From the NCBI GenBank assembly GCA_019058315.1, contig JAHPZH010000007.1, positions 1 to 64,000 on the forward strand: a DNA stretch of 64,000 nt. The letters run 5' to 3'. This document shows, piece after piece, positions 19,643 through 43,096 of this stretch (within the stretch, counting starts at the first letter, position 1; each line of letters opens with the position of its first letter). A model generated the notes under the pieces. The model was not told the DNA's origin and did no database searches. It saw only the letters and a program-made list of their open reading frames with translations. The position numbers and the translations under genes were made by a program. The stretch is from Candidatus Helarchaeota archaeon (GTDB lineage: Archaea > Asgardarchaeota > Lokiarchaeia > Helarchaeales > RDOG01).

Positions 19643-19702
19643 ATAATTAATAAGCAAATAACTAATACTTAAGAAAAAATTTGTAAAAAGGGGGTATAAC
19701 TT

Positions 19703-20905
19703 TTGAAAATAGAAGATATTAAAGATTCATCGGAAAAGGAACTGGTTCAGAAATTTAAAGACCGATTTAAACTTCAAGATACTGATTTTACAATAAATAA
19801 AAAGGGGATTATAACTAAAATAAAATCTGACAATCCAGAAGCTCATTATGAATTAGGTAATAAATTATCAGATAAAGGGTTATATAAAAAGGCAATTTCA
19901 GCATTTAAAGAAGCTATAAAATTAAATCCAAATTATGCAGAAGCTTATAATAATTTAGGTTTTACTTATGATGAAACAAACAACAAACTAGATGCGATAG
20001 TAGAATATAAAAAAGCTATTAAAGCGAATCCCAAATATTCTGATGCTTTTTTTAATCTAGGGCTCGCTTATAAAGATATTGAAGAGTATGATGAAGCAAA
20101 AGAGGCATTGGAAAATTTTATTAAATTTGCAAAAGAAGAGGACACGAAAGATGTAGAACATGCCCATAAACTCATTATTGAGATTGATAAAATAAATATC
20201 TCTAGTGAAAAAGAAAAAAATCGTCGTGAAAGAGCATACTACACCCCTAATGATATAAAAAAAATAAAAAGTCCTGAAAAAATAAAAAAAATACCAAAAA
20301 GAAAAATAACAAGTAGAATGCCAACTTTCCCTGATGTACAAGATTATTCAATATATGAAAAATACTATTCCAAAAAAAAAGAAGATCAGGAACGAGAAAA
20401 AAATCCAGAACATCATTTTAACTTGGGACATGAATGTCTCAATAGAAGAATGTATCACGAAGCAATAAAACATTATAAAAAAGCTATAAATTTGAAACCC
20501 GATTATTTTGATGCTCTTCATGAGTTAGGTCTAGCATACCACGGCGATAGATGGCATAAAAAAGCAATAAATGTGTTTAGAAAAGCGATAAGTAAAAAAC
20601 CGGATAATAGTTTGGTTCATTACCATATTGGTCTAACATTTTCGGAAATGGGAAAATCAAAAGAAGCAATTAAGGAATTTAAATTCGCAATTAAATTGAG
20701 ACCATTTAATCCATTAATATATTTTAGTCTAGGTCTTGAATATGAGCATATTAGGGATTTGAATAATTGTAAGAATGCTTATAGAGAATTTGTTCGATAC
20801 CCAAGCTCTCAATATCGGGATCTAATTGAACATGCATTGGAAGTGTTAAGATTATTATCAAAAAAAGGAGGAATATATAGAGAATATATAGATTTTAAGC
20901 TGTAA
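19703..20905 (+). CDS. TPR protein (two TPR blocks with a basic linker)
   Basis: AYNNLGFTY...YKKAIKANP-type repeats. Confidence 0.88.
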   Translation: MKIEDIKDSSEKELVQKFKDRFKLQDTDFTINKKGIITKIKSDNPEAHYELGNKLSDKGLYKKAISAFKEAIKLNPNYAEAYNNLGFTYDETNNKLDAIVEYKKAIKANPKYSDAFFNLGLAYKDIEEYDEAKEALENFIKFAKEEDTKDVEHAHKLIIEIDKINISSEKEKNRRERAYYTPNDIKKIKSPEKIKKIPKRKITSRMPTFPDVQDYSIYEKYYSKKKEDQEREKNPEHHFNLGHECLNRRMYHEAIKHYKKAINLKPDYFDALHELGLAYHGDRWHKKAINVFRKAISKKPDNSLVHYHIGLTFSEMGKSKEAIKEFKFAIKLRPFNPLIYFSLGLEYEHIRDLNNCKNAYREFVRYPSSQYRDLIEHALEVLRLLSKKGGIYREYIDFKL

Positions 20906-21000
20906 AAAATTTTTTAATTAAATAAGATGATATCATATTCGATCTGAATTTATTCGACTCCAGTAGACGATAATAAATATTATGGGGAACGTGAAATTAA

Positions 21001-27000: not shown

Positions 27001-28632
27001 ATAATAGGGGATACTAAATCTGTAGAACCTTTAATTGCTTTGTTAAATAATGAAGATAAATATATTTTATGGTACACTATCGAAACTCTTGGAAATTTAG
27101 GTGATCCAAAGGCAGTTGAACCTCTAATTAAAATATTAAATAGTAAAATACCAGGAGTCAATTTTAGATCTGCAGCTTCACTAGGTAAGATAGGTGATAT
27201 TAGAGCAATGGAGCCGCTTATACAAGCTCTAAAGGATGCAGAAGAGTATGCTAAAAAGTATTTTTACGAAGCACTTAATAAATTAGGAAAATTAAATTTG
27301 AATTATTTTATTCAAGCCTTAAATGACGATAATAAAGATATTAGATTGAATTCGGTAAGCATTCTAGGTAATTCAAAAAGTGAAACAGTAGTTGAACCAC
27401 TTATTAAATTATTAAATGATAAGGACAGTGATATTAGAGCTTCGGCAATAGGAGCATTAGGCGAAATTGGTAATAAAAAAGCTATTGAACCAATTAGGAA
27501 TATGTTGAATGATGAAAATTATCGAGTTATTAGAGAAGCAATGAGAGTACTTGGTGACTTTAAAGATGCAAAATCCGTTGATGCAATAATTAATATTATG
27601 GAAGATAAGTATAAATATGTTAAATTTAATACAGAATTGGCTCTTTCAAAAATAGGGGAACCAGCAGTAGATCCTCTTATAAAAAACTTAAAAAATAAAA
27701 ACACACGTATTCGAGAAGCTTCAGCTATAGCACTTGGATATATTAAAGATGAAAAAGCACTAGAACCTCTTATTGAAGCTTTAAAGGACGAAGATGCTAA
27801 TGTAAAGTGGCGTGCAAGAGAAGCTTTGAAAGCTCTTGGGGATGAGAGAGCAGTAATACCCCTTATTCAAATTTTTAAAGAAGAAAAGAATAGTCATAGT
27901 GCATCAGGTATAGTAAAACTTATTGGTAACTTTAAAACTGAAGAATCATTCGAATTTTTAATAAAATGTCTTAAAGGAGAATATGGAGATTTCGAATTTC
28001 CTGCTATTGAAGCGCTTAGTTTATTGGGAGATTCCAGAGCAGTAATGGATCTTATTTCAAAATTGAATCATTCAAAATATTGGGTTCGTAGGGAAGTTGT
28101 AAAATTACTTGGAAAAATTGGAGATAAAAGGGTAGTGCAAATTCTTATCGATAAAATTAAGAATGAACATTATGAAGTAAGAAGTGCCATAGTAGATGCA
28201 CTTGCTAGTATTGGAAAACCTGCAGTAGAGCCCTTAATTCAAGAGTTAACAGATAGTGATTACCGGGTACGATTAAGAACAATTTCCATTCTTGGTAGGA
28301 TTGGAGATAAAAGTGCAATTGAACCAATAGTTCAATGCTTAAAAGACGACGAATTGAGTGTTAGAAGGGAGGCAATAATCGCCCTAGGTAAAATAGGAGA
28401 TAAACGAACTATTGAAATAATCGTTCAACAGTTAAAAGATAAGGAAAAAAGAATTAAAGAATCAGCTGTAGAAGCACTTGGTGAAATCGGTGATTTAACA
28501 GCCCTTAATCCCTTGAATGAAATGCTAAAAATAGAAAAAGATTATACCATTAGAAAAGCTTTAAGGGAAGCTATTAAAAAAATAAAAAATAATAAAAAAG
28601 TTGATTCAGAACCGGGAAATACTAATATCTAA
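21001..28632 (+). CDS. Giant HEAT (PBS lyase-like) repeat protein, 2543 aa
   Basis: Dozens of VRxxAxxALGKIGDxRAVEPLIxAL repeats after a ~240-aa non-repeat N-terminus. Confidence 0.92.
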   Translation: MSKELNLPKDWFEKYLEDSEFKENLSKLGEFEYYDEDLEEPIIFKYWTDTRWKISEIKGEGDFVPPIAKYIISPAFWNDEEIEARFALRCAPNFHLQIYVKKDNKEHILSGIFCFKILADYGKDEGLIGYRKIELSPKDELIATIQNLDHFFTEKTPAYMSFDYNIVYLALKTIIDHGLASNKLLEYRRDEIKDIILKIIEDSKEIHGINQQIYIQLKALFDFEPDEWVKSLIGKLDLLQYLKKMYEIEEENTKRRAANSIEKIEDTRAIKPLFNIWKDKESELRWSAAVALGKMNDSRVLKSLTEELRNIDSNIRWRAIIALGEIGYKKALEPLIEILNNKTDKYRRFAAMALGKFRDKRVIEPLIQALDDQDIQYEVIVGLTNLGKLALDSLISALKNEKKIVKQGAIRALGKIKASEAVDPLIQTLKDEDSHIRRLVLEALREIKDKKALDIIIATLNDSDGYVRHEATKVLREMPDEIAIPSLMQALNDKESLVRSQAKYALVKIGEPAVEPLINAINDASIMDRDEIVEALGDLKDKRAVEPLIKAFNHESKFFRNTIISALGKIGDIRAQETLLKALRDEYDRCRSSAAYALYRMNLEPKKDIDKVYYYFTRNEREKLVALGEVAIEPLLQLLNDENNDVKKHAEEVLKEMGWKPKNDIEKAYELIATQNWRELRELGEPAIIPLFQNKDYKISENVWDTLKRIAKSHVEPFIEIIKDKKNEYREKAIGVLGASKSNEAVKYLLPDLDDENFVVRKDAIRALGSIGDIEAVEPIIQALDDKIETVRTQAIIALGNLQDKRAIEPLIKFVESQSHYERKYALEALNKLGWKPESVSEKVKRLFNQKKWFNQKNWDEIIKFGESAIEPLIEIMTTVWSWVDQQDAIRCLGKIGSKKAVEPLVNFIEDKKKEKYARHEAIRALGLINDETTVDLLISIMNDDEEDDYYTRSAAIWALGEIGIPKPVSGLIKLTKNENKYIKRNVLRTLGKIGDKRAVPYLIDALEDFEDKRDDRNYNKEYYDEYMYEKLRQWNSQDQNWDDTMGDWTVRHLAAWALGKIGAIQALDKLIELLNDEDEDIRIISAWALGRIGNAKAVKPLKKALDDEFSFVRKKAMDALTEIGEFEDIDTIIKKLKDKNKSARMAAVGALGKIGSSRAAEVLIQALKDEFEFLREEYTYQYEDMGKKIEEFEESSYDEHIWHYTDKILSPISNALGKIGKPAVEPLIKALKGENDNAQWGIVDALGIIGDPSAIEPLINSFIEGWEWIEDITIEALAKFGDKAVDPLIKALKNQNSNIRAGVARVLGMIGNEKAVDSLLQVLEDENRGVREAAVRALGKIGDEKIVKPLLKALRDDYEVSWNAAEALSLLGKKSIDLLIQELKTQNNRVKEKIIFVLGKIKDPRVVDILIELLNDKNKDIRNQAARALGAIGNKRATEPLIEALKNEDKKFRDEIIFALGELKDKRAIEPLIKILQEKNSWIREKAEAALKKIGGKKIVKLNIEVLKNKDEDIKKSAMNVLSSIGKFDIDSLLVALKNENSDLRIGAANALGNILRKKVLDNDDYIKRALISTLRDPDYKVRKAVASALFNNYHFGMGQEDIYAQFLVAQTSFQSLERYGESAIDALVPILSDKEFWLRERAAETLDKLNWNPRKDQDKVNYYIAKKQWNKLINLGKTAINTLVEILIYGPPFLRSEVVKILQKLDWNPKNDLENAWYLIVERDWQNLENLGEKALGPLLDALKYEDRKISRKIIELISKIGDKAVEPLINMLQFEKRDVKNKVARVLGKIGNTKAVTPLLEFVKDDRGIIEGDVVWALGEIGDNSTINLLKQLLGESDKITRILINEALQKFGESPLNSYTLSLKNEDPAVRVDTISQLVGIGTSEAIELVVNTMLDEKKIVRETASKALDGIGWAPKNDLEKAYYNIAKENWYKLINMGVKAVRPLLHFLKNKNEKFRGEIEANLIEIGNKTSYPFVQALNDKDKFIQAEAARILGIIGDTKSVEPLIALLNNEDKYILWYTIETLGNLGDPKAVEPLIKILNSKIPGVNFRSAASLGKIGDIRAMEPLIQALKDAEEYAKKYFYEALNKLGKLNLNYFIQALNDDNKDIRLNSVSILGNSKSETVVEPLIKLLNDKDSDIRASAIGALGEIGNKKAIEPIRNMLNDENYRVIREAMRVLGDFKDAKSVDAIINIMEDKYKYVKFNTELALSKIGEPAVDPLIKNLKNKNTRIREASAIALGYIKDEKALEPLIEALKDEDANVKWRAREALKALGDERAVIPLIQIFKEEKNSHSASGIVKLIGNFKTEESFEFLIKCLKGEYGDFEFPAIEALSLLGDSRAVMDLISKLNHSKYWVRREVVKLLGKIGDKRVVQILIDKIKNEHYEVRSAIVDALASIGKPAVEPLIQELTDSDYRVRLRTISILGRIGDKSAIEPIVQCLKDDELSVRREAIIALGKIGDKRTIEIIVQQLKDKEKRIKESAVEALGEIGDLTALNPLNEMLKIEKDYTIRKALREAIKKIKNNKKVDSEPGNTNI

Positions 28633-30279
28633 TTGCTGCCATAATTCCAGTTCAATTTCAGGAACCTCAATGGGAAATTCGAGATTATGCTCATCCTTTA
28701 TCGTATGTAATCCATATAATATTCCTTGCCACTGTTTATTGCTACCTCTTTCCTGTCTCTTGGTAAATTCTAAATATAGATCAAGTAGTGGTTCAAATGC
28801 TCTTTTATCACAGATATGACCAAGGGCTTGGGCGATAATTGAGCGTTCATCCCAATTACTATTTTTTAACATTTCTATTAGTGGATCAACTGCTCTTTTA
28901 TCTCCTATCCATCCAAGAGCAATTATTGCAGGTTTTCTAATATAAGAATCAGAATCTTTTAACATTTCTAAATATAAATCAAAGAATTTTTTATTAGTTA
29001 ATCTAGATAGTGCTTTTGCTGCCTTTTCTCTCACTGTCCAATTTTTATCATTCAAAGCTTGTATAAATATATTGATAATTTTTTCATTATTAATCATAAT
29101 TTGGATTGCTTCTAAAACTGCATTTTTAAATTCTACATTTTTACCCACAGCAATATCCGCCATTTCTTTCGGTTTAAGTCTTTTAAGCATGTTTTTTTTA
29201 ATTTCTAAAAGTATTGGATTTACATGCTTAAACATATTTATCAAATAACATGCCCAAGTTTCATCGTAGAGATCACCATAAATTGATTTTATGTGATCAA
29301 ACCCGATTTTAAAATTGATATGAGCAAGTCCCTCAATAATTTTTTTTCGAATCCTCCCATCTTCATCTTTAAATGCTCTTATTAATGGATCTATCGCTTT
29401 TTTATCAGCAATTTTCTTAATAGATTCTAATGCATTTAATTTAACTTCAAGATCAGGATCTTTTAAATCGTCAATTAATGGATATATAGTTTTTTCATTT
29501 TTAATATTTCCAAGAGCTGCTGCAGCAAATTTTCGAATACTAGGATCATTATTTTGTAGAGCTTTTGTTAATGGTTCGAGTGCTTTCACTCCATACAGTT
29601 TAAATACATTTTTTAATGTATAATCGTCTTTAGGATCTTTTTCTTTAAAAGCTTGGATGATTAACTCTATTGCATTTATAATTCCCATTCTTCCAGAAGA
29701 AATAGCAGCACTTATACGTACTCTCTCATTTTCATCTTTTAAAGCTTGAATAAGCAATTTCACTCCTCTTTGATCACCTATGAAACCATATAGGAGAGCG
29801 TAAAAACTTCTCACTACGTGAAATTCACTTTCAAAAGCATTGTAAATAAGGATTAGTATTTTTTCTCTTTTTTCGCTATCTAAGCCGTCTAATTTTTCCA
29901 TAAATGAATCAAGTACTCTTGAAATCCCTAACCATCCAAGAGCTTTTACAGCAACTTCTTGTACTTCCGCAACATCATGAAATAAAGCATTAATAATTGG
30001 ATGTATGGCTTGTTCATTTGCCAAATATCCTAAAACTTTTATTGTAAGTTTTCTAATATTAATATCATTATTTTCTAGGAGCTCGATTAATAATTCGACA
30101 GCCTCCTCCCCAAGCCATCTAATTTCAGTCAATGCCATTGAATTGATTCGATAATTATAATCTTCTTTGCGAATATCTTCTAGTTCATCAGTTAAAACTT
30201 TTAAAATATCAATAATGATGTTTGGAGCTTTTTCGTTAATTCCTTCAAGCACTGGTAAAAATTTTCGGTATAAAGACAT
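28606..30279 (-). CDS. HEAT repeat protein
   Basis: ALGWIGDKRAVDPLI repeats; convergent 27-bp overlap with the upstream HEAT gene. Confidence 0.9.
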   Translation of the reverse strand: MSLYRKFLPVLEGINEKAPNIIIDILKVLTDELEDIRKEDYNYRINSMALTEIRWLGEEAVELLIELLENNDINIRKLTIKVLGYLANEQAIHPIINALFHDVAEVQEVAVKALGWLGISRVLDSFMEKLDGLDSEKREKILILIYNAFESEFHVVRSFYALLYGFIGDQRGVKLLIQALKDENERVRISAAISSGRMGIINAIELIIQAFKEKDPKDDYTLKNVFKLYGVKALEPLTKALQNNDPSIRKFAAAALGNIKNEKTIYPLIDDLKDPDLEVKLNALESIKKIADKKAIDPLIRAFKDEDGRIRKKIIEGLAHINFKIGFDHIKSIYGDLYDETWACYLINMFKHVNPILLEIKKNMLKRLKPKEMADIAVGKNVEFKNAVLEAIQIMINNEKIINIFIQALNDKNWTVREKAAKALSRLTNKKFFDLYLEMLKDSDSYIRKPAIIALGWIGDKRAVDPLIEMLKNSNWDERSIIAQALGHICDKRAFEPLLDLYLEFTKRQERGSNKQWQGILYGLHTIKDEHNLEFPIEVPEIELELWQQLDISISRF

Positions 30280-30372
30280 GTTTCTTATTCCCCAATAACG
30301 ATTCTTAAATAAATTTATTCAATTTTATTTAAAAACTAATATATAATCAATAGAGAAAAATTAATTAAATAC

Positions 30373-30894
30373 TTAATCTGTGAAATATTTTTTAATTAAA
30401 TAAGATGATATATCGTATTCTTGCCCAAAAAAATTATATTTTTCATTTTCACTTTCAAAACTTCGATGTTTGTAAACTTCACTCACAATTTTATTAACAA
30501 AGTCTATGAAGAGTTCAATATCAGAATTAAGTTCCCCATTTTCCTCACGTAATTTTTTAATTTCTTCATTATTTACTCCAAATTTCTTTTTTGATAACTC
30601 ATTTTGTATTTTTAAATTATTTTCCTGTAAATTTTTCACTTTTTTCTTTAAATCCTTAATTTCATTAGTTTTGTCACTTTTATTATTAGTTTCTTTTGGA
30701 GGCATCCACCAAATCCAAGAACCGCGATTTTTAGTTTGTTTTCCTTTGATTTTTCCTTCTATTGCTAATTTATCTAACCTATTTTTAATGATATGACGTG
30801 GTTTATTAAATAATTTTACAATTTCATTTGTTGTATATGGTTTATTTGAATTTAGAAAAAGTAATAAAATATCGTTTAATATTTGATTTGACAT
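30373..30894 (-). CDS. Winged-HTH protein with coiled coil
   Basis: PYTTNEIVKLF...RLDKLAIEGKI...WIWW followed by heptad-like region. Confidence 0.75.
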   Translation of the reverse strand: MSNQILNDILLLFLNSNKPYTTNEIVKLFNKPRHIIKNRLDKLAIEGKIKGKQTKNRGSWIWWMPPKETNNKSDKTNEIKDLKKKVKNLQENNLKIQNELSKKKFGVNNEEIKKLREENGELNSDIELFIDFVNKIVSEVYKHRSFESENEKYNFFGQEYDISSYLIKKYFTD

Positions 30895-30915
30895 AATCTT
30901 AACCAGTTCATTATC

Positions 30916-30929
30916 TAGTTAATTAACTA
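30916..30929. promoter_or_regulatory. 14-bp perfect palindrome upstream of the wHTH gene
   Basis: TAGTTAATTAACTA. Confidence 0.35.
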
Positions 30930-30991
30930 AATAACTATAATATTTTTCTTAAAAAATTTTTTCCAAATCAATAATTTTATAGACCTATTTT

Positions 30992-33900
30992 TCACAAATT
31001 AAAACTTAAAAATGCCTCTATTACGTTATTTTTGATAGAATCTAAATTAAGAGTCTTTTTATTTAATTTTAAATATTTTATATTATCTAAAATTCCATCT
31101 ATAATATTTCTAGCTACCTCTAATTCTACATAAGACATTAATTCTGATATAATTTTCTCCCAAGTATCTTTTTCTTTTTGTTTATCATCAATTGGAAAAT
31201 AAAAAAAGCGAACTAATTCATCTATCAAATATTCCTTTGCATCTTTATCAAAGATATATTCTGGTTCTATATCTGGAGGGTTTTCAAAGAATTTATTTGT
31301 TGTTTCTATCAAAACTTCTATTTGAGACCTCAAATCTAAATAAAAAATATCTTCAAAAAGTATATCGGGATCATAATCTTTAAAATATAATGAAATATTT
31401 CCCGTTTCTTTTTTCAACATATTCTCATTTGCATCTGATTCTTCTGTTTTATAAATCAAAACCTTATTTTCTGGAAAAATACAAAAATCAAAATCTCTTT
31501 CTATGGTTAGTGAGTTTCTCCATGTAATTTGCTCTTCTTTATTAAAATAATCAAGTTTTAGGATTAGAAATGTAATTCCAAATTCATTCTTTTTAAGTTC
31601 ATAACTTTCGAGTTTTGGATGATTAATTATAGGAAGAATAGGTTCCATTTTTTCTTCAAGAGATTCCGCAGGTAATTTTTCTTTTTCTAGGATTTTATTT
31701 AACTGGAGTAATAACCAATCCAAGTTAGTTTGTATTTTAAAAATATTTCCTTTAAAAATTCCCTTTATTTTTTCTTCATTTACCCATGTTTCTATTATCT
31801 GCCTTAATCTTTTAATTTCCATCCAATTAAAAAAATCAGGAATTTCACGTAAAAATAATTCTTTACTTGCCCTTATTTTTCCATTTATCAATAACAATTT
31901 CAATTTTTTTATAAATTCTAAAAAATTTAAAATAATTTTAAAAGTAATGAGATTATTTTCAATCTCAATATCGTACTTTTTTGATTGATACTTAATAAAA
32001 TTCTTAATTTTCTCGCTTTCTACTTCTCTAACGAAATAAGGTATTTTTTTTAAGTTAAATTTCTTTTCTTTTTGTAATTTCAGGATTAAATTCAAATGTA
32101 AATAATGATTTAATGTTCTTTTTATTATTTTTCTTATTTCTTTTTCATCATTACTATTAAAATCTCTAATATTTTGAATTAAAGAAGTAAAAAATTCCTC
32201 AGTCAAATTAGAATTAAAATATTTCAAAATCTCACAATGCAAATCATACCATTTTGCCCTTATTCCTGGTTTGGTATATATTGATTTTTTAAAAATCTCT
32301 ACAACCCTTTTAAGCAACTTTTTTTTAGTTATTGGATGAATCCCCTCTATTAAATCATATCCAATTTTTTCATAATAAGAAATTTTTTTGGATGAATTAT
32401 CTTTATTCCAATTAAATTGGAAAAAATTGTAAGAATAACGTTCCAACATATTTAATAAATCCCTAAGAGAAGAAATCTTTTTACAAATATCCGTATTGAG
32501 AAAATGTAAAAAAAATTCTTCAAAATTCTTAAAATTATCCTCGTAATTATTTTTAAAGAATCTTATCACACTTGGAATTCGCTTATTACCTCTTTGCTCT
32601 TTTTTTACTCTTCCACCAAGATCTTCAAATATCTTTAAATTTATGTTTTTTGAATCTTGGATATAGATATAAAAACTATCTCCATGCCACAGACAAATAT
32701 CAATAGATTGCCCATGTTTGGTATTATTTAAGAGCAAGCTTAAATCTTCCTTTTCAATATCTTTTTTAAACTTAAAGAGAACATATTTTACACCGAATTT
32801 AGTCATTCCTTCTAAATAATATTGTAATTCAGAAGTTTTAGAATCAAAACTCAATTGAGTTTCCCTGATTAAATGGGGATAGCTGATACCTGAAAAATCA
32901 AATTTAGGAAATTTTTTTCGTCTTAAGATGATGTCGCATTTTTCATTAGCATAACCATATAATTTCACATATTTTCCAAAGGATTTTTTTAGAAAAATTT
33001 CTGTATCAAAAACTGGCATGAGTTTATAGGGCTCAAATCTTCTGTTTCTATAAATATTACTATCGTAAACCATTTGTGTTAATATAATTATAGAATTTGT
33101 CTCCCTTGCAATGAATTTTAACATTGTGGTAAAATTTCCTGCAATGCTTGCCCTCTTCCAAGTAGGAGATAGTTCTTCGTTATCTCCATTGATGGGAATA
33201 TTTCTTTGAATCTGAGTAATTAATGAGTTAACTATAATTAATTTGGGATGAAATTTATTCTTAATATCAATTAACCTTTGTAAGATCGAGTCTATATTAT
33301 CATTGTCGGAAAATGGGATGAAATGGACTCTCTTAAGATTTTCAATATTATAATTTTTAAAATTTCTAGAGATATCAGCTAAATTTTTATAAAAAGGGAA
33401 TTTTAAGTTATTTAAACAAACTACACTTTCTGAATTTAACCCATCCTCATGTTGTGCTGCTAACATGAGGTAACAGATTAAATCCATTAACTGTTTTTCT
33501 TCGTTTTTGTGACAAAAAATTAAGTTAAAGGAACCACAATTAAATCCTTCAGCTCGGCTTTTTTTCCAGCCAAATATTTCGATCCTTGTTCCCTTTTGTA
33601 TATTACGACCTAATTCAATTTTACCGTCAGAGATAAGTCTGATTTCATTTTCTTTAGGGATCTTATCAACAACCTCTAACTCTTCCCCTGTCCAATCGAA
33701 CTTTTTCTGAAGTGGAGGGTATATAATAGCCAAATTCATTTTAATTATTTTTTTATTTAATAAAATCTCAGTACCCTCTTTAAATTCCTGAGAAACCTCA
33801 AAAAAGATATGATTTTGTTCAGTTACTAATTTATCAATATCGGTGAATGTAGGAAAACAAGGTTTTGTTTCTGGAATGTGATCTATTGATTTAGAATAAC

Positions 33901-36900
33901 CGCTCTCAACCACATTAAAGTAAGTTTTTTTAAGGGAGAAGTTTTCATGATATTCTTCTTCATAATGGGGTAATAAATCACAAATCTTAATCCTACTCAA
34001 GAATTCAATAAAACTAATATATTGACCCAGTTGTAAAAACTGATAACCGCCATCCACACATTTATTCATGGGATCTAATACAGTTAGAGCAGTTTTATGA
34101 CCCATGCTTTTATTAAAAATGTTGTGAAGGTCAATTTTTTTGGATGTTCGTATAGCTATTTCTTTTGTAGTCCAACAAATGATTTTAATATCTATGTTTT
34201 CTGGATTTCTTCCTAAGTTTTTAATCAAGGTATTTATTTTCCTAATTGGAATATCTTTTTTTAATTCAAATGCTGCATAATTAAATCCATTCCGAGTATT
34301 CCCAAATTCGTAAAAATAGAGTAGCTTCTCAGGATTTTTAAGGAGATTTTCTCTCCGTTTTAAAAATTTTTCCAACTCTTTTGTTTTATTTGGCTTTGAA
34401 TATGCACACACTTCACGGAAAAATTTAGCAAAATCTATATTTTTTATAAATCTGAAGATATTATAAAGATAAAATTCATAAAAATCAAACCAATCATTTA
34501 TATAATTATTTTCATTAATGGTCGCAATCCAATTTTTAAAATTCTTAAGATTTGGTCTACCATATTTATTAAAAAATTCATCTTCATCAACAATTTCGTT
34601 AACATATTGAATTGTTAAATCATAAGCTTCCCTTTCTTTGGAATATAAAAACTCCCCATTATGTTCTTCAAATAGACTTTTTATATTATTTAGGTCATTT
34701 TCAGATTCTATTACTGGGTGATGATCAAACCAGATTAATTTGAAATTAAAGTATCTGTCTTCAAGTTGCTCAAAAAATATTTTAAGGAATTTTTCTCGAC
34801 CTGGTAAGAATGGAATGTCTGCAACATAAATATAATTCATCATATCGTGCTTTAAAGACTTTAAAACTTTATTTTCAAGAACCTTTTCAATATAGTTTAG
34901 ACCATATCTATTTGTTGCTGGAAAGATCGATAATATGTTATTTTTTCCTTGATGTAGAAATGTCAAGTTTACAGCAGACTTAAAACCATCCTTATCAACA
35001 TGAGGAATAATGCAGACATTTATCCAAGGTTCTAACTCAGGAATTCCCTTCTCCTTAGGAGATAAGAAAAAATCTAAGATTGTTAGGGTATCTTGAATCA
35101 TAATATTTCTATAAAATAGATCTTCATCCTCCAACTCAATGTATTGGGGAATATTCCCATTTCCCAAAATAGAGTCAATTATATTTACAATATTAAAAAC
35201 CCATTTTGCTTCTTTTTTTGTTTCAAAGGCACAAAAAGGAATATATTCAATATTATTTTTTGATTTCAAGAATTGAGCAAGATTTTTAGCTTCGAGCTCC
35301 ATAATCTGGAGCATAGATAATTCTTTATTCTTATAATAGAATTTTTTTGAACATACATCTTGGAATAATGTATCTAGTTTTTTCTTTGCCTTACATTTAC
35401 TTGAAACATAAAATAATTCTCTCCCTAATTCGTCCATTCCCCTCCATACGTCTTTTCTAAAAATTCTATTATCTATAAACATTTCAACTAAATAATATCT
35501 TAATGGTGGTCTATAAGCATCCATGAAATCAAAAAGTAACTCCTTATTTTTCTTAGTCATTGCCCCATAAAAGGTCTCATTTCTTTTCCCGCTATTTGCA
35601 CGATAATGCAATATTCCAGGTCCAGGGAAAAATCGATTAAATCCGACTTTACCTAAAGCTTTGCCTGCTTCTTTTTGTAATAAAATATATAGATAATTCA
35701 AGCATGCATTAAACACATCATAAGCCTTTGCACCATAATAAAAAATTGTCTCGGCGTATCTCTGTGCTTGCCGGCCAACAAAGCGAAATTTTGGGGGTAA
35801 AGCCCGTTTGATCACTTCCCAAGCATTTTTTTCTGAATTTCCTTCAGCAGAACGTAATCTATTCATGATATCTATTATTTCTTGTTCATTATGAGGTTCA
35901 TAAGAAGCATTATAAAATAAATATGTTAAAAGCAACCAATCAAGTTGACCATAAAGGAGTTTATCTTGATATTTCTTTATAACCCACGGTTTGTTTAATT
36001 CTGTAATGAATTTCGAGACTAATTTTCTTGTATAAAGCACATTTGACATTATTTTTGCAAAAACCATTTGTCTACCGACTTCCATCAAATCCCCTTTTGC
36101 TCTCCGATCTATTATTTTATTTCTAATCAAACTCTCGGATCTTTCCCTTTTCTCCGCTTCAAGTATTTCTTCTTTGTTATGTTCAATTAATTCTATTCGA
36201 TGTAAGTCAATAAAATTCATTGCTTCTTTACTTATTGTCCCTCCGAATAATTCAATTCTTCCCACCGCATCTATAAAGTAACGTCTTTTATTACCAGATA
36301 TATAAAAACGAAATACTTTATCTTTCGAGTCATAATCAACCCGTAATTCATGTCGCTTTTTCACAATTAGATTGTACGCATAATTTTTAACATTAGCTAT
36401 TAAAAAGCCATTAATTTCTTTGATTTTATTAGTTATTTGTTTATAAATTCCTGTTTTTCCCTCAAACATTCCCCTCTCTCCCATATATACCACTAATTTA
36501 CAATTCTTACAAATTGATGCAACTCCATATATGGGAATTAATAGTGTATTTATTTCACCACATTCAGGGCATTTTGGTTTGTCATCATGAATTTCAAAAC
36601 TTTTAAATTGAATATATTTACGTTCTATTTCTTCAAAATCATCACATATTTTTTGCTTTGGAGAACGTTCTTTTTTCTTAAAATTACATCTATATCTACA
36701 ATTTATTCTCTTTCTTCGATCATGAGGATGTTTTTGCAAGTGTTGGCAATCTTTACATGTTTTTTCTTGAGATTTTTCAAAATATTTCTTTAAAAAATAT
36801 CGATATGGAGGTCTTCCTATTACTTGATATTCTTGAACACAAACAACTCTATCTGAAAGTTTATCTAAGTGTGCTCTAATTTTACGAAGACTAATATCAC

Positions 36901-39292
36901 CATAAAGATTCATATACAACTCTTTTACTGTTAGTCCATTTTTACCAGCTATTTCTAATAGCTTTAATATTTCTTCATCAAGCATTGAAGGAGCTTTATT
37001 TCTCCAATTAATCTTGTGACGCCAAATCCCCGGTTTTTTACCTTTCTTTTCGATTTCTTCTTTTTGGTAACGTCTATAGATCTTATTAAGGGTATGAAAT
37101 ATTGTCTTATTTTCATCAAATACTCTAGTAAAATCAACTTCGTAGTAATTTTGTCCCTTCTCTTTAACAATTTTTTCGACATATTCATGGATTCTGCAAC
37201 CTTCACAGAAGAGATATAATGATGCAGCAAGCCAAATACTGGTTTTTCGATAATTTTCAATATCTCCATCATAAAGTCCTTTTTTATAATTCTCTTTTTC
37301 TTCTTGTTCTAGATCCCAGCGATAATTCTGTAATAAATCTCGAATTTTATCTTTCTTTTCTAGTACATAATCCCTTTGAAGTGCTTTTAAATCTTGAAAC
37401 CTAGGGTCCTCTTTAAGAAGAATCTTTGTTGCAGTATTAGTAAGGATATTGATACAAGAGCTGGGCGAGGGCTTATTATTATATAAAAACAAAAATGAAA
37501 ATTCATCAGCAGTTAAAATATCAACTTGCGATTCAACTGCTGCCTCCCCTATATATGTGAGCCCCATCACCTTTTTACTTGATCTTATATAAATTGTGTT
37601 AAGCAGATCATTGACAATTCTCCTAAGTCTATATCGAACATATCTATGTGTTAATCTTGTAAATTCATCACGCGTTATTTTTTTCCTTATATCTTCTGTT
37701 TCTTTTTTATTAATTTTATATAATTCCAAATTTCTTTCATTTTTTGCCCTTAAAATGAGCTTTTTAATATATTTCTTCCATTTTTTAAAAGATATTTGAT
37801 GATAAAATAACCTTTCAATTGCTAACTTTTCAATATCTTTTAAAGTAATTCTGCTTCTAATCTCATCAAGCTTAAAACCTCTAAAACGAAAATTCTTAGG
37901 TATTTTTTCTGATTTTTGATCTTGCTCTTTTATTTTCTTATCCTTGATTAGAAGAATTTTCTCTTCAAAATCATTTTTCAATAATTTCGAAACAAAAAAT
38001 ATTATATTCCCTTCTTTTTCTCTGGTTCTACCAATCATTTGAGTAAGTTCAACTGAGTTATAAATTTCAGCATCAGTTATTAGTATTGTATGGATGTTCT
38101 TGATATCTACTCCAACTTCCAATACAGGACTGCAAAAAAGGAATCGAATTTTATCATCCTTCATAAATTCGTTAAATTTTCTTTTTCTAATCTCTAAATC
38201 CAACCCTGCATGTATGTAATCAACATGAAAAGCAACTTTTTTTTCATTAATAAATTGCATATATTCTTCAAATTCTCTACCATATTCAGTATCAAGATCT
38301 GAAAATACAGCATTTGCGATATAATTTTTTGGATTAACATATGGAACCTTACCAAAATTTTCCCATACGAACATAGCGAGGGCTTCTGCAATCCTACGGC
38401 TATAGGTGAAAATGAGCATTTTGCCAGAAGTTTTTTTATCATTTTTCACAATATCATATAAAAATTTCTCACAATGTTTCAATGTTCTAAATAGCTTTTC
38501 ATAATATGCCCTAATATTATCAAACTTTAAGCGAGTCTTAATGAACTTTTCAACATCTGAAAATTTGTATTTTTTCAATAACTTTTTTCTTTCCCTCTTC
38601 CATATATGTTTAAAATCACCATATTTCTTTTGAATTATTTCTCCTTTAAAATTTCGTTCATTTGATCTAAAAATAAGTTCACAATTAAATTTTTTAGCCC
38701 AATTTTCTGCTGATTTTCTTTCAAAACTCCCACTTAAAAAACAAAATTGAACATCTTCATGCTCACGCTGAATTTTATATAACATCGTTTCGAGTTTTAA
38801 GCCACGAGATCTTTCTCCTAATTTATGAGCTTCATCAATAATAACCGCTCCAAATATTTTCTTTCCATAGAAATATCTTCTCTTTTGTATCTCAAAAAGG
38901 AATGAGCGAAATGCTTCATATGTTGCGATAATTATTGCATTCCCCATAGCATTTCTTAAATCATCAAGAGCAGGTCTAATTTCTGCTTGTAATTTTAATA
39001 TTTTTATTTCTCTTTGATATTCTCTTTCTAATTCAATAGCTTTTTGATGTAAAAGCATCACTGTCGGAACCAAATATACAGGAATTAAATTTCTGACTAA
39101 AGCCATTGTAGTACAAATTTTTGCAATTTCGGTTTTACCCATACCTGTTGGTGCAACTACAAAAACACTTCGACCTTTAATTACAAATTTATATCCTTTT
39201 TTTTGATATTTATGTAGTTTGCTAAGTAAGAAATTTCTACGCTTCGAACTCTTGTCTGCCTTCTCAATATTTCTAGAAATCGTCTCAAACAT
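30992..39292 (-). CDS. cas1: Multidomain Hel308-like helicase - wHTH/Zn - Cas1 - DHH - inactive RadA fusion protein
   Basis: APTGMGKT, DEAH, QMIGR; Cas1 SAEG, NACLNYLY, GILH, FDFMDAYRP; HVDKDG and DHH; RadA-like IIVNSL...IIILTQMV. Confidence 0.85.
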   Translation of the reverse strand: MFETISRNIEKADKSSKRRNFLLSKLHKYQKKGYKFVIKGRSVFVVAPTGMGKTEIAKICTTMALVRNLIPVYLVPTVMLLHQKAIELEREYQREIKILKLQAEIRPALDDLRNAMGNAIIIATYEAFRSFLFEIQKRRYFYGKKIFGAVIIDEAHKLGERSRGLKLETMLYKIQREHEDVQFCFLSGSFERKSAENWAKKFNCELIFRSNERNFKGEIIQKKYGDFKHIWKRERKKLLKKYKFSDVEKFIKTRLKFDNIRAYYEKLFRTLKHCEKFLYDIVKNDKKTSGKMLIFTYSRRIAEALAMFVWENFGKVPYVNPKNYIANAVFSDLDTEYGREFEEYMQFINEKKVAFHVDYIHAGLDLEIRKRKFNEFMKDDKIRFLFCSPVLEVGVDIKNIHTILITDAEIYNSVELTQMIGRTREKEGNIIFFVSKLLKNDFEEKILLIKDKKIKEQDQKSEKIPKNFRFRGFKLDEIRSRITLKDIEKLAIERLFYHQISFKKWKKYIKKLILRAKNERNLELYKINKKETEDIRKKITRDEFTRLTHRYVRYRLRRIVNDLLNTIYIRSSKKVMGLTYIGEAAVESQVDILTADEFSFLFLYNNKPSPSSCINILTNTATKILLKEDPRFQDLKALQRDYVLEKKDKIRDLLQNYRWDLEQEEKENYKKGLYDGDIENYRKTSIWLAASLYLFCEGCRIHEYVEKIVKEKGQNYYEVDFTRVFDENKTIFHTLNKIYRRYQKEEIEKKGKKPGIWRHKINWRNKAPSMLDEEILKLLEIAGKNGLTVKELYMNLYGDISLRKIRAHLDKLSDRVVCVQEYQVIGRPPYRYFLKKYFEKSQEKTCKDCQHLQKHPHDRRKRINCRYRCNFKKKERSPKQKICDDFEEIERKYIQFKSFEIHDDKPKCPECGEINTLLIPIYGVASICKNCKLVVYMGERGMFEGKTGIYKQITNKIKEINGFLIANVKNYAYNLIVKKRHELRVDYDSKDKVFRFYISGNKRRYFIDAVGRIELFGGTISKEAMNFIDLHRIELIEHNKEEILEAEKRERSESLIRNKIIDRRAKGDLMEVGRQMVFAKIMSNVLYTRKLVSKFITELNKPWVIKKYQDKLLYGQLDWLLLTYLFYNASYEPHNEQEIIDIMNRLRSAEGNSEKNAWEVIKRALPPKFRFVGRQAQRYAETIFYYGAKAYDVFNACLNYLYILLQKEAGKALGKVGFNRFFPGPGILHYRANSGKRNETFYGAMTKKNKELLFDFMDAYRPPLRYYLVEMFIDNRIFRKDVWRGMDELGRELFYVSSKCKAKKKLDTLFQDVCSKKFYYKNKELSMLQIMELEAKNLAQFLKSKNNIEYIPFCAFETKKEAKWVFNIVNIIDSILGNGNIPQYIELEDEDLFYRNIMIQDTLTILDFFLSPKEKGIPELEPWINVCIIPHVDKDGFKSAVNLTFLHQGKNNILSIFPATNRYGLNYIEKVLENKVLKSLKHDMMNYIYVADIPFLPGREKFLKIFFEQLEDRYFNFKLIWFDHHPVIESENDLNNIKSLFEEHNGEFLYSKEREAYDLTIQYVNEIVDEDEFFNKYGRPNLKNFKNWIATINENNYINDWFDFYEFYLYNIFRFIKNIDFAKFFREVCAYSKPNKTKELEKFLKRRENLLKNPEKLLYFYEFGNTRNGFNYAAFELKKDIPIRKINTLIKNLGRNPENIDIKIICWTTKEIAIRTSKKIDLHNIFNKSMGHKTALTVLDPMNKCVDGGYQFLQLGQYISFIEFLSRIKICDLLPHYEEEYHENFSLKKTYFNVVESGYSKSIDHIPETKPCFPTFTDIDKLVTEQNHIFFEVSQEFKEGTEILLNKKIIKMNLAIIYPPLQKKFDWTGEELEVVDKIPKENEIRLISDGKIELGRNIQKGTRIEIFGWKKSRAEGFNCGSFNLIFCHKNEEKQLMDLICYLMLAAQHEDGLNSESVVCLNNLKFPFYKNLADISRNFKNYNIENLKRVHFIPFSDNDNIDSILQRLIDIKNKFHPKLIIVNSLITQIQRNIPINGDNEELSPTWKRASIAGNFTTMLKFIARETNSIIILTQMVYDSNIYRNRRFEPYKLMPVFDTEIFLKKSFGKYVKLYGYANEKCDIILRRKKFPKFDFSGISYPHLIRETQLSFDSKTSELQYYLEGMTKFGVKYVLFKFKKDIEKEDLSLLLNNTKHGQSIDICLWHGDSFYIYIQDSKNINLKIFEDLGGRVKKEQRGNKRIPSVIRFFKNNYEDNFKNFEEFFLHFLNTDICKKISSLRDLLNMLERYSYNFFQFNWNKDNSSKKISYYEKIGYDLIEGIHPITKKKLLKRVVEIFKKSIYTKPGIRAKWYDLHCEILKYFNSNLTEEFFTSLIQNIRDFNSNDEKEIRKIIKRTLNHYLHLNLILKLQKEKKFNLKKIPYFVREVESEKIKNFIKYQSKKYDIEIENNLITFKIILNFLEFIKKLKLLLINGKIRASKELFLREIPDFFNWMEIKRLRQIIETWVNEEKIKGIFKGNIFKIQTNLDWLLLQLNKILEKEKLPAESLEEKMEPILPIINHPKLESYELKKNEFGITFLILKLDYFNKEEQITWRNSLTIERDFDFCIFPENKVLIYKTEESDANENMLKKETGNISLYFKDYDPDILFEDIFYLDLRSQIEVLIETTNKFFENPPDIEPEYIFDKDAKEYLIDELVRFFYFPIDDKQKEKDTWEKIISELMSYVELEVARNIIDGILDNIKYLKLNKKTLNLDSIKNNVIEAFLSFNL

Positions 39293-39594
39293 AATATCAA
39301 ATGAACAGCATCAGTAAAAAATTATAATTTCAAAGAAATCTCTAAAGTGTTTAAAAATTTTTTTAAATTAATTTTTTGAAATTCAAAATTACTAATTTAA
39401 ATTTAAAATTTTAAATAATTTATTAATTTTTGTTAATTCCATTTTTAAATATCATAATTTATTTATAAAGCCGAAGTGCCTAAATATCCGACTATTATCT
39501 ATTAGTCTATACCATTAATGGTAATTAAAGAAAACATATTTTCTAAAATGTAAGTGGAATATAAATAAATTTAAATGAAGTTAAAAATGATAAA

Positions 39595-40620
39595 TCATAG
39601 AAAATTACCAGAATTAAGTTCACTTAATAAAAAATTTTTTTCTATTCCTTTATAATAACCTCTCGTAACAAGGCTACCCTCTAGAAATCCGATTTTCCTT
39701 AAAAAACTTTTTTTATCTTTTTTCCTTACGATTAATAAATGGGTATATTTATCATTGATTAAATAATTGATGTTAAAATGATTATGAATTTCTCCTATTT
39801 CATATAAGAAATCAAGATTTTTTTGAGCCCCAATAAGCCAAAATCTCTTATATTTTTTGGATACAGTTATACCCCCATCATCTGCCCAAAAACATCGAAG
39901 AAACTCTCGTTTAAATTCGGAAGGACCAGCCTTTATCACTTCTGGAACTTGAATATTATTTGATTTACAACTGTAAGATGGTGCATATTTCATTAAATCT
40001 TGAATAGCTAAAATTGAGTTGTAATTAATAGATACGCAATTTTTATGGTTTTCATCAAATATACCATTATTTTCAAGTCCATATACAGTTTTCACATCAT
40101 TGATAAACTGCTGAATTACTTTTGGTGATGAACAGATAAATCTAAAGTAATTATTTCCTTTTCTATCATTGACAGAACCATCAAAAAGCATATGACTAAT
40201 GATTCTTATTTTTTCAATTGTCATTTTCTCTTGTTCCTTTATTGGTTTATATCTACTTTCTTGAAACTCTTTTGACTTCCATTTTTGTTTCATTATACGA
40301 CTAAAATGAATTCGACTTTGTTCTCTTTTAGAGGGGGTTACATTTGCAAGCTTAGCCCCCTTACTACAACCCCAATTTGGGGGGAATACTACAAATTGGA
40401 AGTCATATTTTGATTTACTGATAATTTTCAGACACTCAATAAATAAAGATTCCGGAATTGTAGATATTCCAGATCTATAATTATATAAATTATTCTTTGG
40501 TATATCCATCTTAATTGAAAGTTGCTTAAAAGTAACTTTCTTCCTTAATAAATCAAAGAATTTCTTCAAATCTAGTTTTTCTAATTTAATCCTGTTTTCT
40601 TTTGTATTTCTACCTTTCAT
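39595..40620 (-). CDS. Free-standing two-motif LAGLIDADG endonuclease with N-terminal HTH
   Basis: IISHMLFDGSV and FLRCFWADDGGI helices; N-terminal FKQLSIKMDIPKNNLYNYRSG. Confidence 0.7.
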   Translation of the reverse strand: MKGRNTKENRIKLEKLDLKKFFDLLRKKVTFKQLSIKMDIPKNNLYNYRSGISTIPESLFIECLKIISKSKYDFQFVVFPPNWGCSKGAKLANVTPSKREQSRIHFSRIMKQKWKSKEFQESRYKPIKEQEKMTIEKIRIISHMLFDGSVNDRKGNNYFRFICSSPKVIQQFINDVKTVYGLENNGIFDENHKNCVSINYNSILAIQDLMKYAPSYSCKSNNIQVPEVIKAGPSEFKREFLRCFWADDGGITVSKKYKRFWLIGAQKNLDFLYEIGEIHNHFNINYLINDKYTHLLIVRKKDKKSFLRKIGFLEGSLVTRGYYKGIEKNFLLSELNSGNFL

Positions 40621-40667
40621 TTTAAAACCGAAAATTTATTTCATAAAATCAAATAAAAACATCTAAG

Positions 40668-41969
40668 TCATTTTAGAAAATTCGATAAAAACGTTTGATT
40701 CTTAAAAAAGAGGCGGTAATCAAATTTTTGCATGTTTTGTAATGTTTTTTTAGTTTTTCTCCCATATTTTTTTATAATATAGTTTTGCATCTCATCTGGG
40801 TCTACTGTATAAGGGACTTCAATCAAAATTATCCCATTTTCTTTACATATTTTTCTTTTTATTTGGTCTCTTTTTTGTTGTTTTTTGAATCTTTTTTCAG
40901 TGGAGTGGAAAAATGAGTTATATTCATAATGCTGTAATCCATTATATTCAAATGCTAGTTTTAATTCTCGATTATAGCCATCTAGATGCATTTTTTCAAT
41001 TTTATAATCTCCAAATTCAATTTGATATTTTTCCAAAATTGTTTTATCAAGAAAAACATCATTTAAGGTAGTCGTAGGAAATTCTTTTTCAAATATTGCT
41101 TCAAAATAGCACCGACAAATTCGTTCATTAAATCCTTTCATACAATTAGGACACCAATGCCCCCTTAGAACATGTGTAGGTCTTGCTTCCCAGATATTTT
41201 TACATGCTCCGCATTGCCATTTATATTTCATATTAACATAAATATATTTTTTAGATGTGGATATTTTAGATAAAAATTTCCCAGGATAACCAGTCTTTTC
41301 CAAACCTATATCATATGCTATTTTATGCATCTCTGTTATAGAATGTCTTGCTTTTCCAGAACATCTTGGACACCAAGAATCCCCTCTTCGGATATGATCT
41401 GCAGTTGTTTCCCAAATATAGCCGCATTTCCCACATTGCCACTCATATTTTGTGTCTGTATTAATGTATTCTTTTGATAAGAATTTTCCTGGCTTCCCCG
41501 TGTTTTTTATTCCCATATCATGGGCAGCCTTATACATGTCATCTATACTAAGTTGAAGATTTTTCGCACAATTTGGACACCAAGCCCCCCTTCTCACATG
41601 ATCTGCCCTTGATTCCCAAATATAATTACATTTTCCGCATTGCCATTCATATTTTGTGTTAACATTAATGTATTTTTTTGATAAGAATTTTCCTGGCTTT
41701 CCCGTCTTCTTTAGACCTACTTCATGGGCAGTTTTATGCATTTCATCTATAGTGAGCCTACGATTCCCAGCACAATTTGGACACCAGCCCCCTTGCTTTA
41801 CTGAATCTGCCGTAACTTTCCATATATAGTTGCATTTTCCGCATTGCCACTTGTATTTTGTTTTAATATCAATATATTTTTTTGATAAGAACTTTCCTGG
41901 CTTCCCTGTCTTTTTTATTCCTATATCATGAGCTGTTTTATGCATATTTTTTATATCATATTTTTTCAT
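40668..41969 (-). CDS. Four Zn-ribbon repeats plus C-terminal PD-(D/E)xK/Vsr-like nuclease
   Basis: 4x WQCGxC..W...WCPxC; LDGYNRELKLAFEYNGLQHY; ATG 41969 with SD aggtg preferred over TTG 41987. Confidence 0.8.
   Translation of the reverse strand: MKKYDIKNMHKTAHDIGIKKTGKPGKFLSKKYIDIKTKYKWQCGKCNYIWKVTADSVKQGGWCPNCAGNRRLTIDEMHKTAHEVGLKKTGKPGKFLSKKYINVNTKYEWQCGKCNYIWESRADHVRRGAWCPNCAKNLQLSIDDMYKAAHDMGIKNTGKPGKFLSKEYINTDTKYEWQCGKCGYIWETTADHIRRGDSWCPRCSGKARHSITEMHKIAYDIGLEKTGYPGKFLSKISTSKKYIYVNMKYKWQCGACKNIWEARPTHVLRGHWCPNCMKGFNERICRCYFEAIFEKEFPTTTLNDVFLDKTILEKYQIEFGDYKIEKMHLDGYNRELKLAFEYNGLQHYEYNSFFHSTEKRFKKQQKRDQIKRKICKENGIILIEVPYTVDPDEMQNYIIKKYGRKTKKTLQNMQKFDYRLFFKNQTFLSNFLK
41140..41960 (-). 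repeat. ~204-bp coding tandem repeat, 4 copies
   Basis: gataagaa(c/t)tttcctggctt anchor at 41884, 41680 and 41476, with a diverged copy at 41269. Confidence 0.85.
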
Positions 41970-42015
41970 ATAAACACCTAATTTCAAGATTTTTTTACTT
42001 AATAATATTATAGAA

Positions 42016-42062
42016 TGCGCAGAATATATGTTTTGTTATATATAAAGAAGAGTTTTTGCGCA
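42016..42062 (-). promoter_or_regulatory. TATA box flanked by two TGCGCA palindromes
   Basis: TGCGCA at 42016 and 42057 with TATATATAAA at 42037-42046; identical spacing to 1369-1415. Confidence 0.6.
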
Positions 42063-42220
42063 AATTTAATTTAAGGGTTATTAATTTTTCCATTAATTTT
42101 CATTATCTATTTATAGAATTCCATTAGGTAATTCTGGGTCACTTAAAAGGAGTAATAACAAAATAGATAATATTCAATTAATTATTAAAAAAAAAGTAAT
42201 GGAAAATAAACAGTGAAGAT

Positions 42221-43096
42221 CTAAAAATTGAAAAACTGGGGAGCCATCTTCATTCGAGCAGCTATTTCATAGACTCCCCATGCCCCACAGCCCCCATGGC
42301 CTAAACAATCTACATCATTCCCATAACAACAGAAGGGTTGCTCAAATCCATTATCTCCAAGATACATGGGAACAAAAAATCTCTTTATTGGGCAATTCTT
42401 AATTATTTCTGGTGCATTTTGAGATAACATAAGTTCAAATGCTAACTCTTTATTAAGAATATATTTTGGATATTTCTTTTTTAAAGCAATTACTTTTTTT
42501 ATCACTGGATCTCGTTCTTTTAAAGTTTTCCAGCCCAGATCTGATGTATCGTTCTTTCTCGGAACATAAAAAGAGAAAATAATACCTCTAATAGGAGTTT
42601 CCTTACGTAAAATCTCGATTATTTCTTCAAAGCAATCCTCATTCTTTTTTGTAATTACGCATTGGCTTTGAAGGTCTCCTTCAAAATCGTCTGGTAGATT
42701 ATTTAGATTAGCTATAACTTTTTTAAAGGTCCCTTTTCCCCGAACTTCATCATTTACTTCTTCTGGACCATCTATTGAAACACACCATTTTGTTTTTTTT
42801 CCCAAATTTATTAATGGGAGAGTTCCATTTGTGGTAATAACATTTCTGGAGAATATTTTTATCCCTGGTCTTAATACATCTTTTCTTAATAATGGCTCAC
42901 CCCCCATCCAAACCATTGAGAAGATACCATAGTGGTTTCTGTATTTTTTAATTTCTTTTAACATGACTTCTGTAGGCATTTCGCTTTCTTTAGTTGGTAT
43001 GTTTGGGTTTCCCTCCCTAAAAACAAAGCAATGTTTGCATCTTAGGTTACATCTATTAGTTACATTTATCATAGCCATTGGGCGGAATTCTTTCAT
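42221..43096 (-). CDS. Radical SAM protein
   Basis: CNLRCKHC, GGEPLL, SIDG; Cys-rich C-terminus. Confidence 0.88.
   Translation of the reverse strand: MKEFRPMAMINVTNRCNLRCKHCFVFREGNPNIPTKESEMPTEVMLKEIKKYRNHYGIFSMVWMGGEPLLRKDVLRPGIKIFSRNVITTNGTLPLINLGKKTKWCVSIDGPEEVNDEVRGKGTFKKVIANLNNLPDDFEGDLQSQCVITKKNEDCFEEIIEILRKETPIRGIIFSFYVPRKNDTSDLGWKTLKERDPVIKKVIALKKKYPKYILNKELAFELMLSQNAPEIIKNCPIKRFFVPMYLGDNGFEQPFCCYGNDVDCLGHGGCGAWGVYEIAARMKMAPQFFNF

Follow-up and report, generated by a model that had tools for sequence, protein, structure and literature searches.

What does a single archaeal polypeptide do when it joins a helicase to Cas1, a phosphoesterase and a RadA-like fold, and does it act alone? 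The question is raised by one gene, here called Cas1H, in a 64,000-nt stretch of DNA (the window: positions 1 to 64,000 of contig JAHPZH010000007.1, assembly GCA_019058315.1) from an archaeon whose closest relatives are labelled Ca. Helarchaeota. A first-pass annotation had read its product as a self-sufficient machine that unwinds, trims and integrates DNA. We have examined the protein, its neighbourhood and its homologs, and we weigh below what it is likely to be for.

Architecture of the fusion protein

The ORF of 8301 nt has zero internal stops over 2766 aa (Table 1). A paralog in the same genome is colinear with it along 2614 aa (43% identity). A further protein, encoded in a separately assembled Helarchaeota genome, keeps the same order from about aa 560 into the tail. 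This double colinearity excludes a chimeric origin of the domain architecture, which is thus no artefact of assembly. The domain order proposed earlier (SF2 helicase, Hel308 part, winged helix-turn-helix, Cas1, DHH, RadA-like) was borne out by Pfam and by fold matches, for which AlphaFold models of aa 430-1400 and aa 1400-2300 were compared with known structures. Translation also showed that the coordinates given for Walker A (aa 47, nt 39131-39154) and DEAH (aa 153, nt 38825-38836) were exact, and that the named residues Q418, G676, C846, C908 and C928 were all correct.

At the N-terminus, Pfam recognizes DEAD (28-194) and Helicase_C (339-423), and residues Q30, G52, K53, D153, E154, H156, Q418 and R422 are invariant in 12 homologs. 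The model of the following region matches Hel308-type structures with middling Z scores (2va8, 10.4; 2zj2, 9.5). With motifs Q, I, II and VI, a winged helix and a ratchet domain, the N-terminal part is predicted to be a Hel308/Ski2-like SF2 helicase. The modelled winged helix-turn-helix further along gives Z scores of 8-10 against many domains of that kind. The cysteines noticed at first reading form two Cys4 clusters that are conserved in homolog alignments, the second being invariant in 18 homologs, and both would be expected to bind metal.

The Cas1 domain is recognized by Pfam Cas_Cas1 above the cut-off (aa 991-1281, E 8e-10). Its model has a Z score of 24.4 to Archaeoglobus fulgidus Cas1 (4n06) and 23.4 to a casposase (6opm); similarly, a profile of the Cas1 segment from 25 homologs matches A. 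fulgidus Cas1 (E 1e-14) and the M. mazei casposase (E 8e-13). Across these 25 homologs E1150 and H1229 are invariant and D1258 is kept in at least 90%, and all three align to catalytic positions of the reference 4n06. The first-pass call of Cas1 at aa 970-1353 therefore stands, since a two-domain Cas1 fold is modelled there and the triad is kept; by predicted fold and E, H, D/E triad, Cas1H falls within the Cas1 superfamily. In the Cas1 tree the branches are long and the backbone is not resolved, and casposase versus CRISPR Cas1 ancestry is not readable from it.

The DHH domain went undetected in a sequence search against the PDB and was revealed by fold comparison alone. Its model matches 5yh1 (Z 15.9 over 305 aligned residues), the pAp phosphatase 8a8k (14.1) and RecJ 2zxo (12.7), scores that do not separate the RecJ type from the NrnA/pAp types. 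The metal ligands H1431, D1433, D1435, D1492 and D1523-H1524-H1525 are invariant in 10 homologs, and the modelled fold together with metal-binding motifs I-III argues for a DHH/DHHA1 phosphoesterase. Next to it, aa 1810-2126 have a RadA/DMC1 fold match (Z 18.9, rmsd 2.7, 202 residues aligned), and HHalign to RadA (96%, E 4e-9) shows that the GKT loop is lost. This Walker A loop is missing in 7/7 fused homologs; furthermore, the Walker B aspartate is replaced by asparagine at aa 2022, there is an insert of about 95 aa, and the N-terminal HhH domain is absent from the aligned range. The model thus describes a RecA-type core fold without its P-loop, in effect a dead recombinase. The tail, previously called repeat-containing, includes extra DHHA1-like units, one clear (aa 2151-2225, E 4e-6) and one weak (near aa 2560-2625, E 0.002). 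Its greater part is without assignment, and aa 2300-2766 had no match in Pfam, PHROG or the atlas.

Table 1. Features of the window, with positions on its forward strand; sites on other contigs of the genome carry the contig name.
Feature	Position	Strand	Evidence or remark
Maximal variable block, 29.6 kb; true element ends inside	12654..42232		Comparison with relatives
TPR-like protein, 674 aa	16528..18552	+	HEPN-like RxxxxH motif near C-terminus (lead only)
radA paralog, intact Walker A, convergent with Cas1H	18668..19642	+	Domain search; remnant in GCA_048887025.1
TPR (400 aa) and HEAT-repeat (2543 and 557 aa) genes	19703..30279		Domain search
wHTH/coiled-coil gene, 173 aa	30373..30894	-	Sequence comparison
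Helicase-Cas1-DHH-pseudoRadA fusion gene (Asgard aCas1/Cas1H family), 2766 aa	30992..39292	-	ORF, Pfam, homologs
Variable tail	30995..32875	-	Two extra DHHA1-like units, the second weak
RadA/Rad51-fold core without Walker A	32915..33865	-	HHalign, fold match
DHH-DHHA1 phosphoesterase, aa 1421-1776	33965..35032	-	Fold match, conserved metal ligands
Cas1 domain with triad E1150, H1229, D1258, aa 973-1363	35204..36376	-	Profile and fold matches
Two Cys4 clusters, C846/849/869/883 and C908/911/928/931	36500..36757	-	Homolog alignment
Winged helix-turn-helix, aa 764-839	36776..37003	-	Fold match
Hel308/Ski2-type winged-helix and ratchet domains, aa 478-752	37037..37861	-	Fold match
SF2 helicase RecA1/RecA2 domains, aa 24-430	38003..39223	-	Pfam, homolog alignment
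Conserved motif, about 190-255 bp upstream of Cas1H start	39465..39500		Shared with C6 paralog and metagenome locus L080
Two-motif LAGLIDADG protein, 341 aa	39595..40620	-	Domain search
Zinc-finger-repeat endonuclease, 439 aa, phage homing-endonuclease type	40668..41987	-	phrog_559, E 3e-56
TATA box between two TGCGCA palindromes	42016..42062	-	Motif comparison
TATA/TGCGCA-pair sites, whole genome	1369-1415, 42016-42062; C6:232334, C6:304396, C10:11210, C11:793485		

The variable block and the genes upstream

Cas1H lies in a block of lower GC content (28.8%) than its flanks (31.9% and 30.4%). In GCA_013375355.1, whose flanks are 87-89% identical in nucleotides, window positions 42233 and 12653 are joined via about 460 bp and the 29.6 kb are absent. 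At the same site GCA_048887025.1 (L082) carries 88 bp of the Cas1H tail (91% nt) and two pieces of the radA-paralog region (63 and 324 bp, 87-92% nt), plus other genes, enclosed by the same flanks; Cas1H and the radA paralog are thus parts of a single unstable block. Inverted repeats, target duplication and att-like duplication were not found at the block ends, only short A/T-rich matches at candidate ends, and the 64-kb window has no tRNA or Rfam match. No TnpB, guide-RNA end or RAMP remnant was found at window 12-44 kb. Furthermore, the genome holds no near-identical second copy of this Cas1H and so gives no sign of its recent movement. It is probable that the window copy is a long-established resident and that its tnpB has been lost.

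Several other genes share the block. The only genome homolog of the 173-aa wHTH/coiled-coil gene (55% aa) follows the Cas1H paralog C11a. The 674-aa TPR-like gene, single-copy and of 23% GC, is probably defence cargo and possibly encodes an abortive-infection toxin, and the TPR and HEAT-repeat genes are either cargo or later insertions. The two HEAT-repeat genes (21001-28632, 2543 aa; 28606-30279, 557 aa) are convergent and overlap, and both are bracketed by a 39-bp A/T-rich direct repeat (92%; 20895-20933 and 30373-30411), possibly the trace of a nested insertion.

Upstream of Cas1H, in the same orientation, stand two intact ORFs of homing-endonuclease type. By inspection, the LAGLIDADG protein has both acidic motif residues; the zinc-finger endonuclease is built of 204-nt repeat units and has a PIP-box-like motif at its end. 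The TATA box between TGCGCA palindromes before them has six occurrences in the genome, where about 0.09 would be expected. It also stands before tnpB in C6, before TnpB-like genes in L078 and L080 and before two other LAGLIDADG genes. Since two host-type genes, identified by inspection as one AbrB-like (window about 1140-1340, minus strand) and one for an AAA ATPase, carry it as well, it is not exclusive to elements. We considered this motif as an element end and rejected that reading, because it flanks a TATA box and precedes host-type genes; it probably marks a small regulon of tnpB, LAGLIDADG, zinc-finger nuclease, AbrB-like and AAA ATPase genes. The separate conserved motif nearer to Cas1H has one further match, a weak one, elsewhere in the genome and is a candidate operator or element end.

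How regular is the association of these nucleases with Cas1H? A LAGLIDADG gene lies directly upstream of Cas1H or of its remnant in four separate cases: in the window; in metagenome locus L080, with the order tnpB-like, LAGLIDADG (62% to that of the window), Cas1H; in L074, with the order tnpB, LAGLIDADG-HTH, Cas1-like; and at C6:230-232 kb, where it abuts a remnant (C6:230140-230429) of the last 290 bp of Cas1H, 85% identical in nucleotides to the window gene. Without Cas1H, a tnpB-like gene is found with LAGLIDADG in L078, and the zinc-finger/LAGLIDADG pair occurs in a close relative at L077. The latter cassette (L077:8355-11310, GCA_013375355.1) consists of promoter, zinc-finger gene and LAGLIDADG gene (86% nt), inserted where a gene for an M24 peptidase has its 3' end. 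It is accompanied by a diverged 77-bp duplication of this gene end, there is no integrase gene within it, and its insertion site is empty in the genome studied here (C11:677100-677204). It looks like an integration that replaces the 3' end of the target gene.

Paralogs, partner modules and known systems

The genome contains five helicase-Cas1 giants, the window copy and four paralogs, with 30-76% identity. The family is patchy, being found in 3/61 relatives, and a survey of the phylum was positive in 18/400 genomes with ordinary Cas1 counted in. Among about 30 homologs (50% clustering) the helicase-Zn-Cas1 core is common, and the DHH, RadA-like and tail parts vary. Most of those with enough flanking sequence are arranged head-to-head with a partner, either tnpB or a three-gene module that contains RAMP, and the two kinds of partner, TnpB and ARAMP, interleave on the Cas1 tree. 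There, the nearest TnpB-paired relative of the window copy is C6 (support 100/99).

Paralogs C6, C11a and C11b have an adjacent tnpB with a guide-RNA end, unlike the window copy. A common end motif lies just 3' of tnpB in three paralogs and a contig-end fragment; their flanks differ where aligned, and what varies past the tnpB end has the look of host DNA next to the element. Internally deleted derivatives of paralog elements are also present. In one, at C2:383459-384600, the 5' part of tnpB is fused to the 3' part of Cas1H in a C11-type element, and the start of C8 (C8:1-88) carries a tnpB-side end that matches this derivative. The C6 element is followed, immediately past its tnpB end, by a family B polymerase gene (C6:300168-302759); a casposon reading based on this gene was not adopted, as it lies outside the tnpB end motif.

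A single RAMP module was found in the genome (C1:403774-405986), and the fourth paralog, C1, is divergent to it. This paralog is without DHH and RadA parts, and a convergent DHH-RadA fusion gene is found 13 kb away (C1:380162-382117, 651 aa); this has an intact Walker A and is matched by the DHH profile of the giant fusion (E 9e-18). A stand-alone DHH gene related to it lies at C11:595284-596213. Convergent radA genes adjoin Cas1H in loci L017 and L018, a radA-like gene is paired with an SSB gene about 38 kb away from the tnpB end of C11a, and a radA-DHH-SSB cluster occupies C11:631601-634922; the RadA tree shows no single element-specific clade. These arrangements speak against the notion of one self-sufficient polypeptide: an active RadA is often nearby, other copies can do without the DHH and RadA parts or carry them on a separate gene, and a separate nuclease module (TnpB, ARAMP or the two homing-endonuclease-like genes) adjoins family members.

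Is the family itself new? The name aCas1 reportedly goes back to Makarova et al. 2020, CRISPR J 3:156. Window Cas1H belongs to the Asgard aCas1/Cas1H family by host, context and architecture rather than by reference sequences, and the link drawn earlier to diverged Asgard Cas1 homologs agrees with what has been published on it (PMC10691335, PMC8730458). The aCas1-TnpB loci, in groups Cas1H-Asgard-1 and -2, have been proposed to be transposons with aCas1 as the transposase (Altae-Tran et al., 2023; PMC10691335), and ARAMP is an array-less Cas5/Cas7-like module with aCas1 (PMC8730458; PMC12669027) that has been termed enigmatic (PMC8730458). The family is therefore already known. Neither the TnpB-less, homing-endonuclease-flanked form seen in the window, with its sequenced empty site, nor any biochemistry of the family was found in the literature searched.

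The window locus shares with the aCas1-TnpB loci an Asgard host, a highly diverged Cas1 and the lack of cas2 or an array, and three of its paralogs are TnpB-paired. However, it lacks TnpB and a guide-RNA end, and it differs further in the pair of homing-endonuclease-like genes upstream and in the 29.6-kb variable block with a radA paralog. Many homologs, paralog C1 included, are divergent to a RAMP-containing three-gene module as in ARAMP loci, whereas the window has no Cas7/Cas5-like RAMP genes. With casposons Cas1H has in common the Cas1 fold, an intact triad, the absence of a CRISPR array and a probable transposase role, but the block has no PolB, the wHTH is N-terminal to Cas1, and the large helicase, DHH and RadA fusions are foreign to casposons; casposon-type terminal inverted repeats or target duplication were not found at the candidate ends. 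Although the best structural match is the CRISPR adaptation Cas1 of A. fulgidus, with the same E/H/acidic triad, identity is about 20%, the protein is a multi-domain fusion, and the assembly (94% complete) contains neither cas2 nor a CRISPR array; an array-like signal at the start of C10 was rejected as CRISPR and is a coding repeat. Finally, the folds are those of archaeal Hel308, RecJ/GAN, RadA and RPA, yet here they are fused to Cas1, and the RadA module is without its P-loop.

Proposed function and alternatives

In our judgement Cas1H is probably an integrase that serves a Cas1-based mobile element, one that is assisted by recombination and can exchange the partner which cuts its target. 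The active-site residues of its Cas1, helicase and DHH parts are intact and its RadA fold is dead; the family is patchy, multi-copy and found in unrelated gene contexts; and there is a variable block with an empty site, with interchangeable upstream nuclease modules and with RadA and DHH either fused or as separate genes. We infer every catalytic step of the mechanism, which might run as follows. A partner nuclease would cut the element-free site, this being RNA-guided TnpB or ARAMP in relatives and the zinc-finger and/or LAGLIDADG endonuclease in the window copy. The Hel308-type helicase and the RecJ-like DHH domain would act on the break, or on the donor ends, by unwinding and resection, a separate active RadA would pair the strands, perhaps docked through the dead RadA domain, and Cas1 would act last, at the strand-transfer joints. 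Against this explanation, the empty site in GCA_013375355.1 could be a deletion rather than a site never occupied. The missing repeats and duplications at the block ends, the lack of a near-identical second copy, the zinc-finger/LAGLIDADG pair that occurs apart from Cas1H and the promoter motif before host-type genes also count against it. Of the two options first offered, a system for array-less capture/integration or for transposition, transposition is the best supported and nothing was found in support of array-less capture.

The partner-swap step, and that step only, faces a competing account to which we give a substantial, though less than even, chance: the upstream nucleases may be an independent selfish cassette, or cargo, beside a Cas1H that has lost its tnpB and is now an immobile, partnerless relic or served by TnpB in trans. 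The L077 cassette sits at a different site with its own 77-bp target duplication and no Cas1H, L078 likewise has its tnpB-like and LAGLIDADG genes without Cas1H, and the remnants show that islands decay; however, the four separate cases of LAGLIDADG directly upstream of Cas1H or its remnant, and the intactness of all ORFs at the window locus, argue against this account. It is rather doubtful, by contrast with the integrase reading at large, that Cas1H drives a homing-type element. There, a single promoter would serve a nuclease slot open to TnpB, ARAMP or protein-guided zinc-finger/LAGLIDADG enzymes, and insertion would proceed by cutting, resection, RadA pairing and a finishing step by Cas1, not by casposase-like end transfer. 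If Cas1H does so, Cas1 would have a third role in addition to those in CRISPR adaptation and in casposons.

Two readings without transposition must also be weighed. In one, Cas1H would be domesticated and non-mobile, serving defence or DNA repair from within a defence island and processing foreign or broken DNA with Cas1 as nuclease or resolvase. The helicase part matches Hachiman HamB-type models (E 2e-15), but that match is limited to the generic helicase core; the block does carry the HEPN-like TPR protein and TPR/HEAT genes, ARAMP has been described as a defence-like derivative, and no element ends were found. We nevertheless think this reading unlikely, as the family is multi-copy and patchy, with paralogs that share an end motif, deleted derivatives and TnpB pairing. 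Array-less adaptation, by which Cas1H would capture short foreign DNA and write a guide beside TnpB or ARAMP, seems to us very improbable. Cas1 with a helicase and a DHH nuclease does resemble spacer-processing modules. A hypervariable region has been noted downstream of aCas1-linked tnpB (PMC10691335). However, the window block lacks TnpB, a guide-RNA end and any RAMP remnant, cas2 and an array are missing from the assembly, and in the paralogs the DNA past the tnpB end resembles host flank.

The papers naming aCas1 leave its role in Asgard archaea open, and the window copy offers a natural comparison of protein-guided with RNA-guided partners, for which the sequenced empty site is usable as a substrate. 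If Cas1H does integrate tens of kilobases at the cut of a swappable nuclease, this would have a bearing on how CRISPR adaptation arose from mobile elements, and Cas1H would be a candidate for programmable large-DNA insertion.

Some minor observations concern the wider family and the rest of the window. One genome (G307, L070-L073) has four shorter helicase-Cas1 genes, one of them split into two ORFs, each followed by a co-directional RAMP-like operon. A tnpB-Cas1H locus (L011/L067, DATKTP010000038.1) is labelled Candidatus Deferrimicrobium, a bacterium; the label is probably wrong, as the same genes are found in G003, which belongs to the order of this archaeon. Finally, window 46100-47488 holds two tandem paralogous genes of about 235 aa, assigned to no family and about 73% identical in nucleotides, which are also present in the relative L081.
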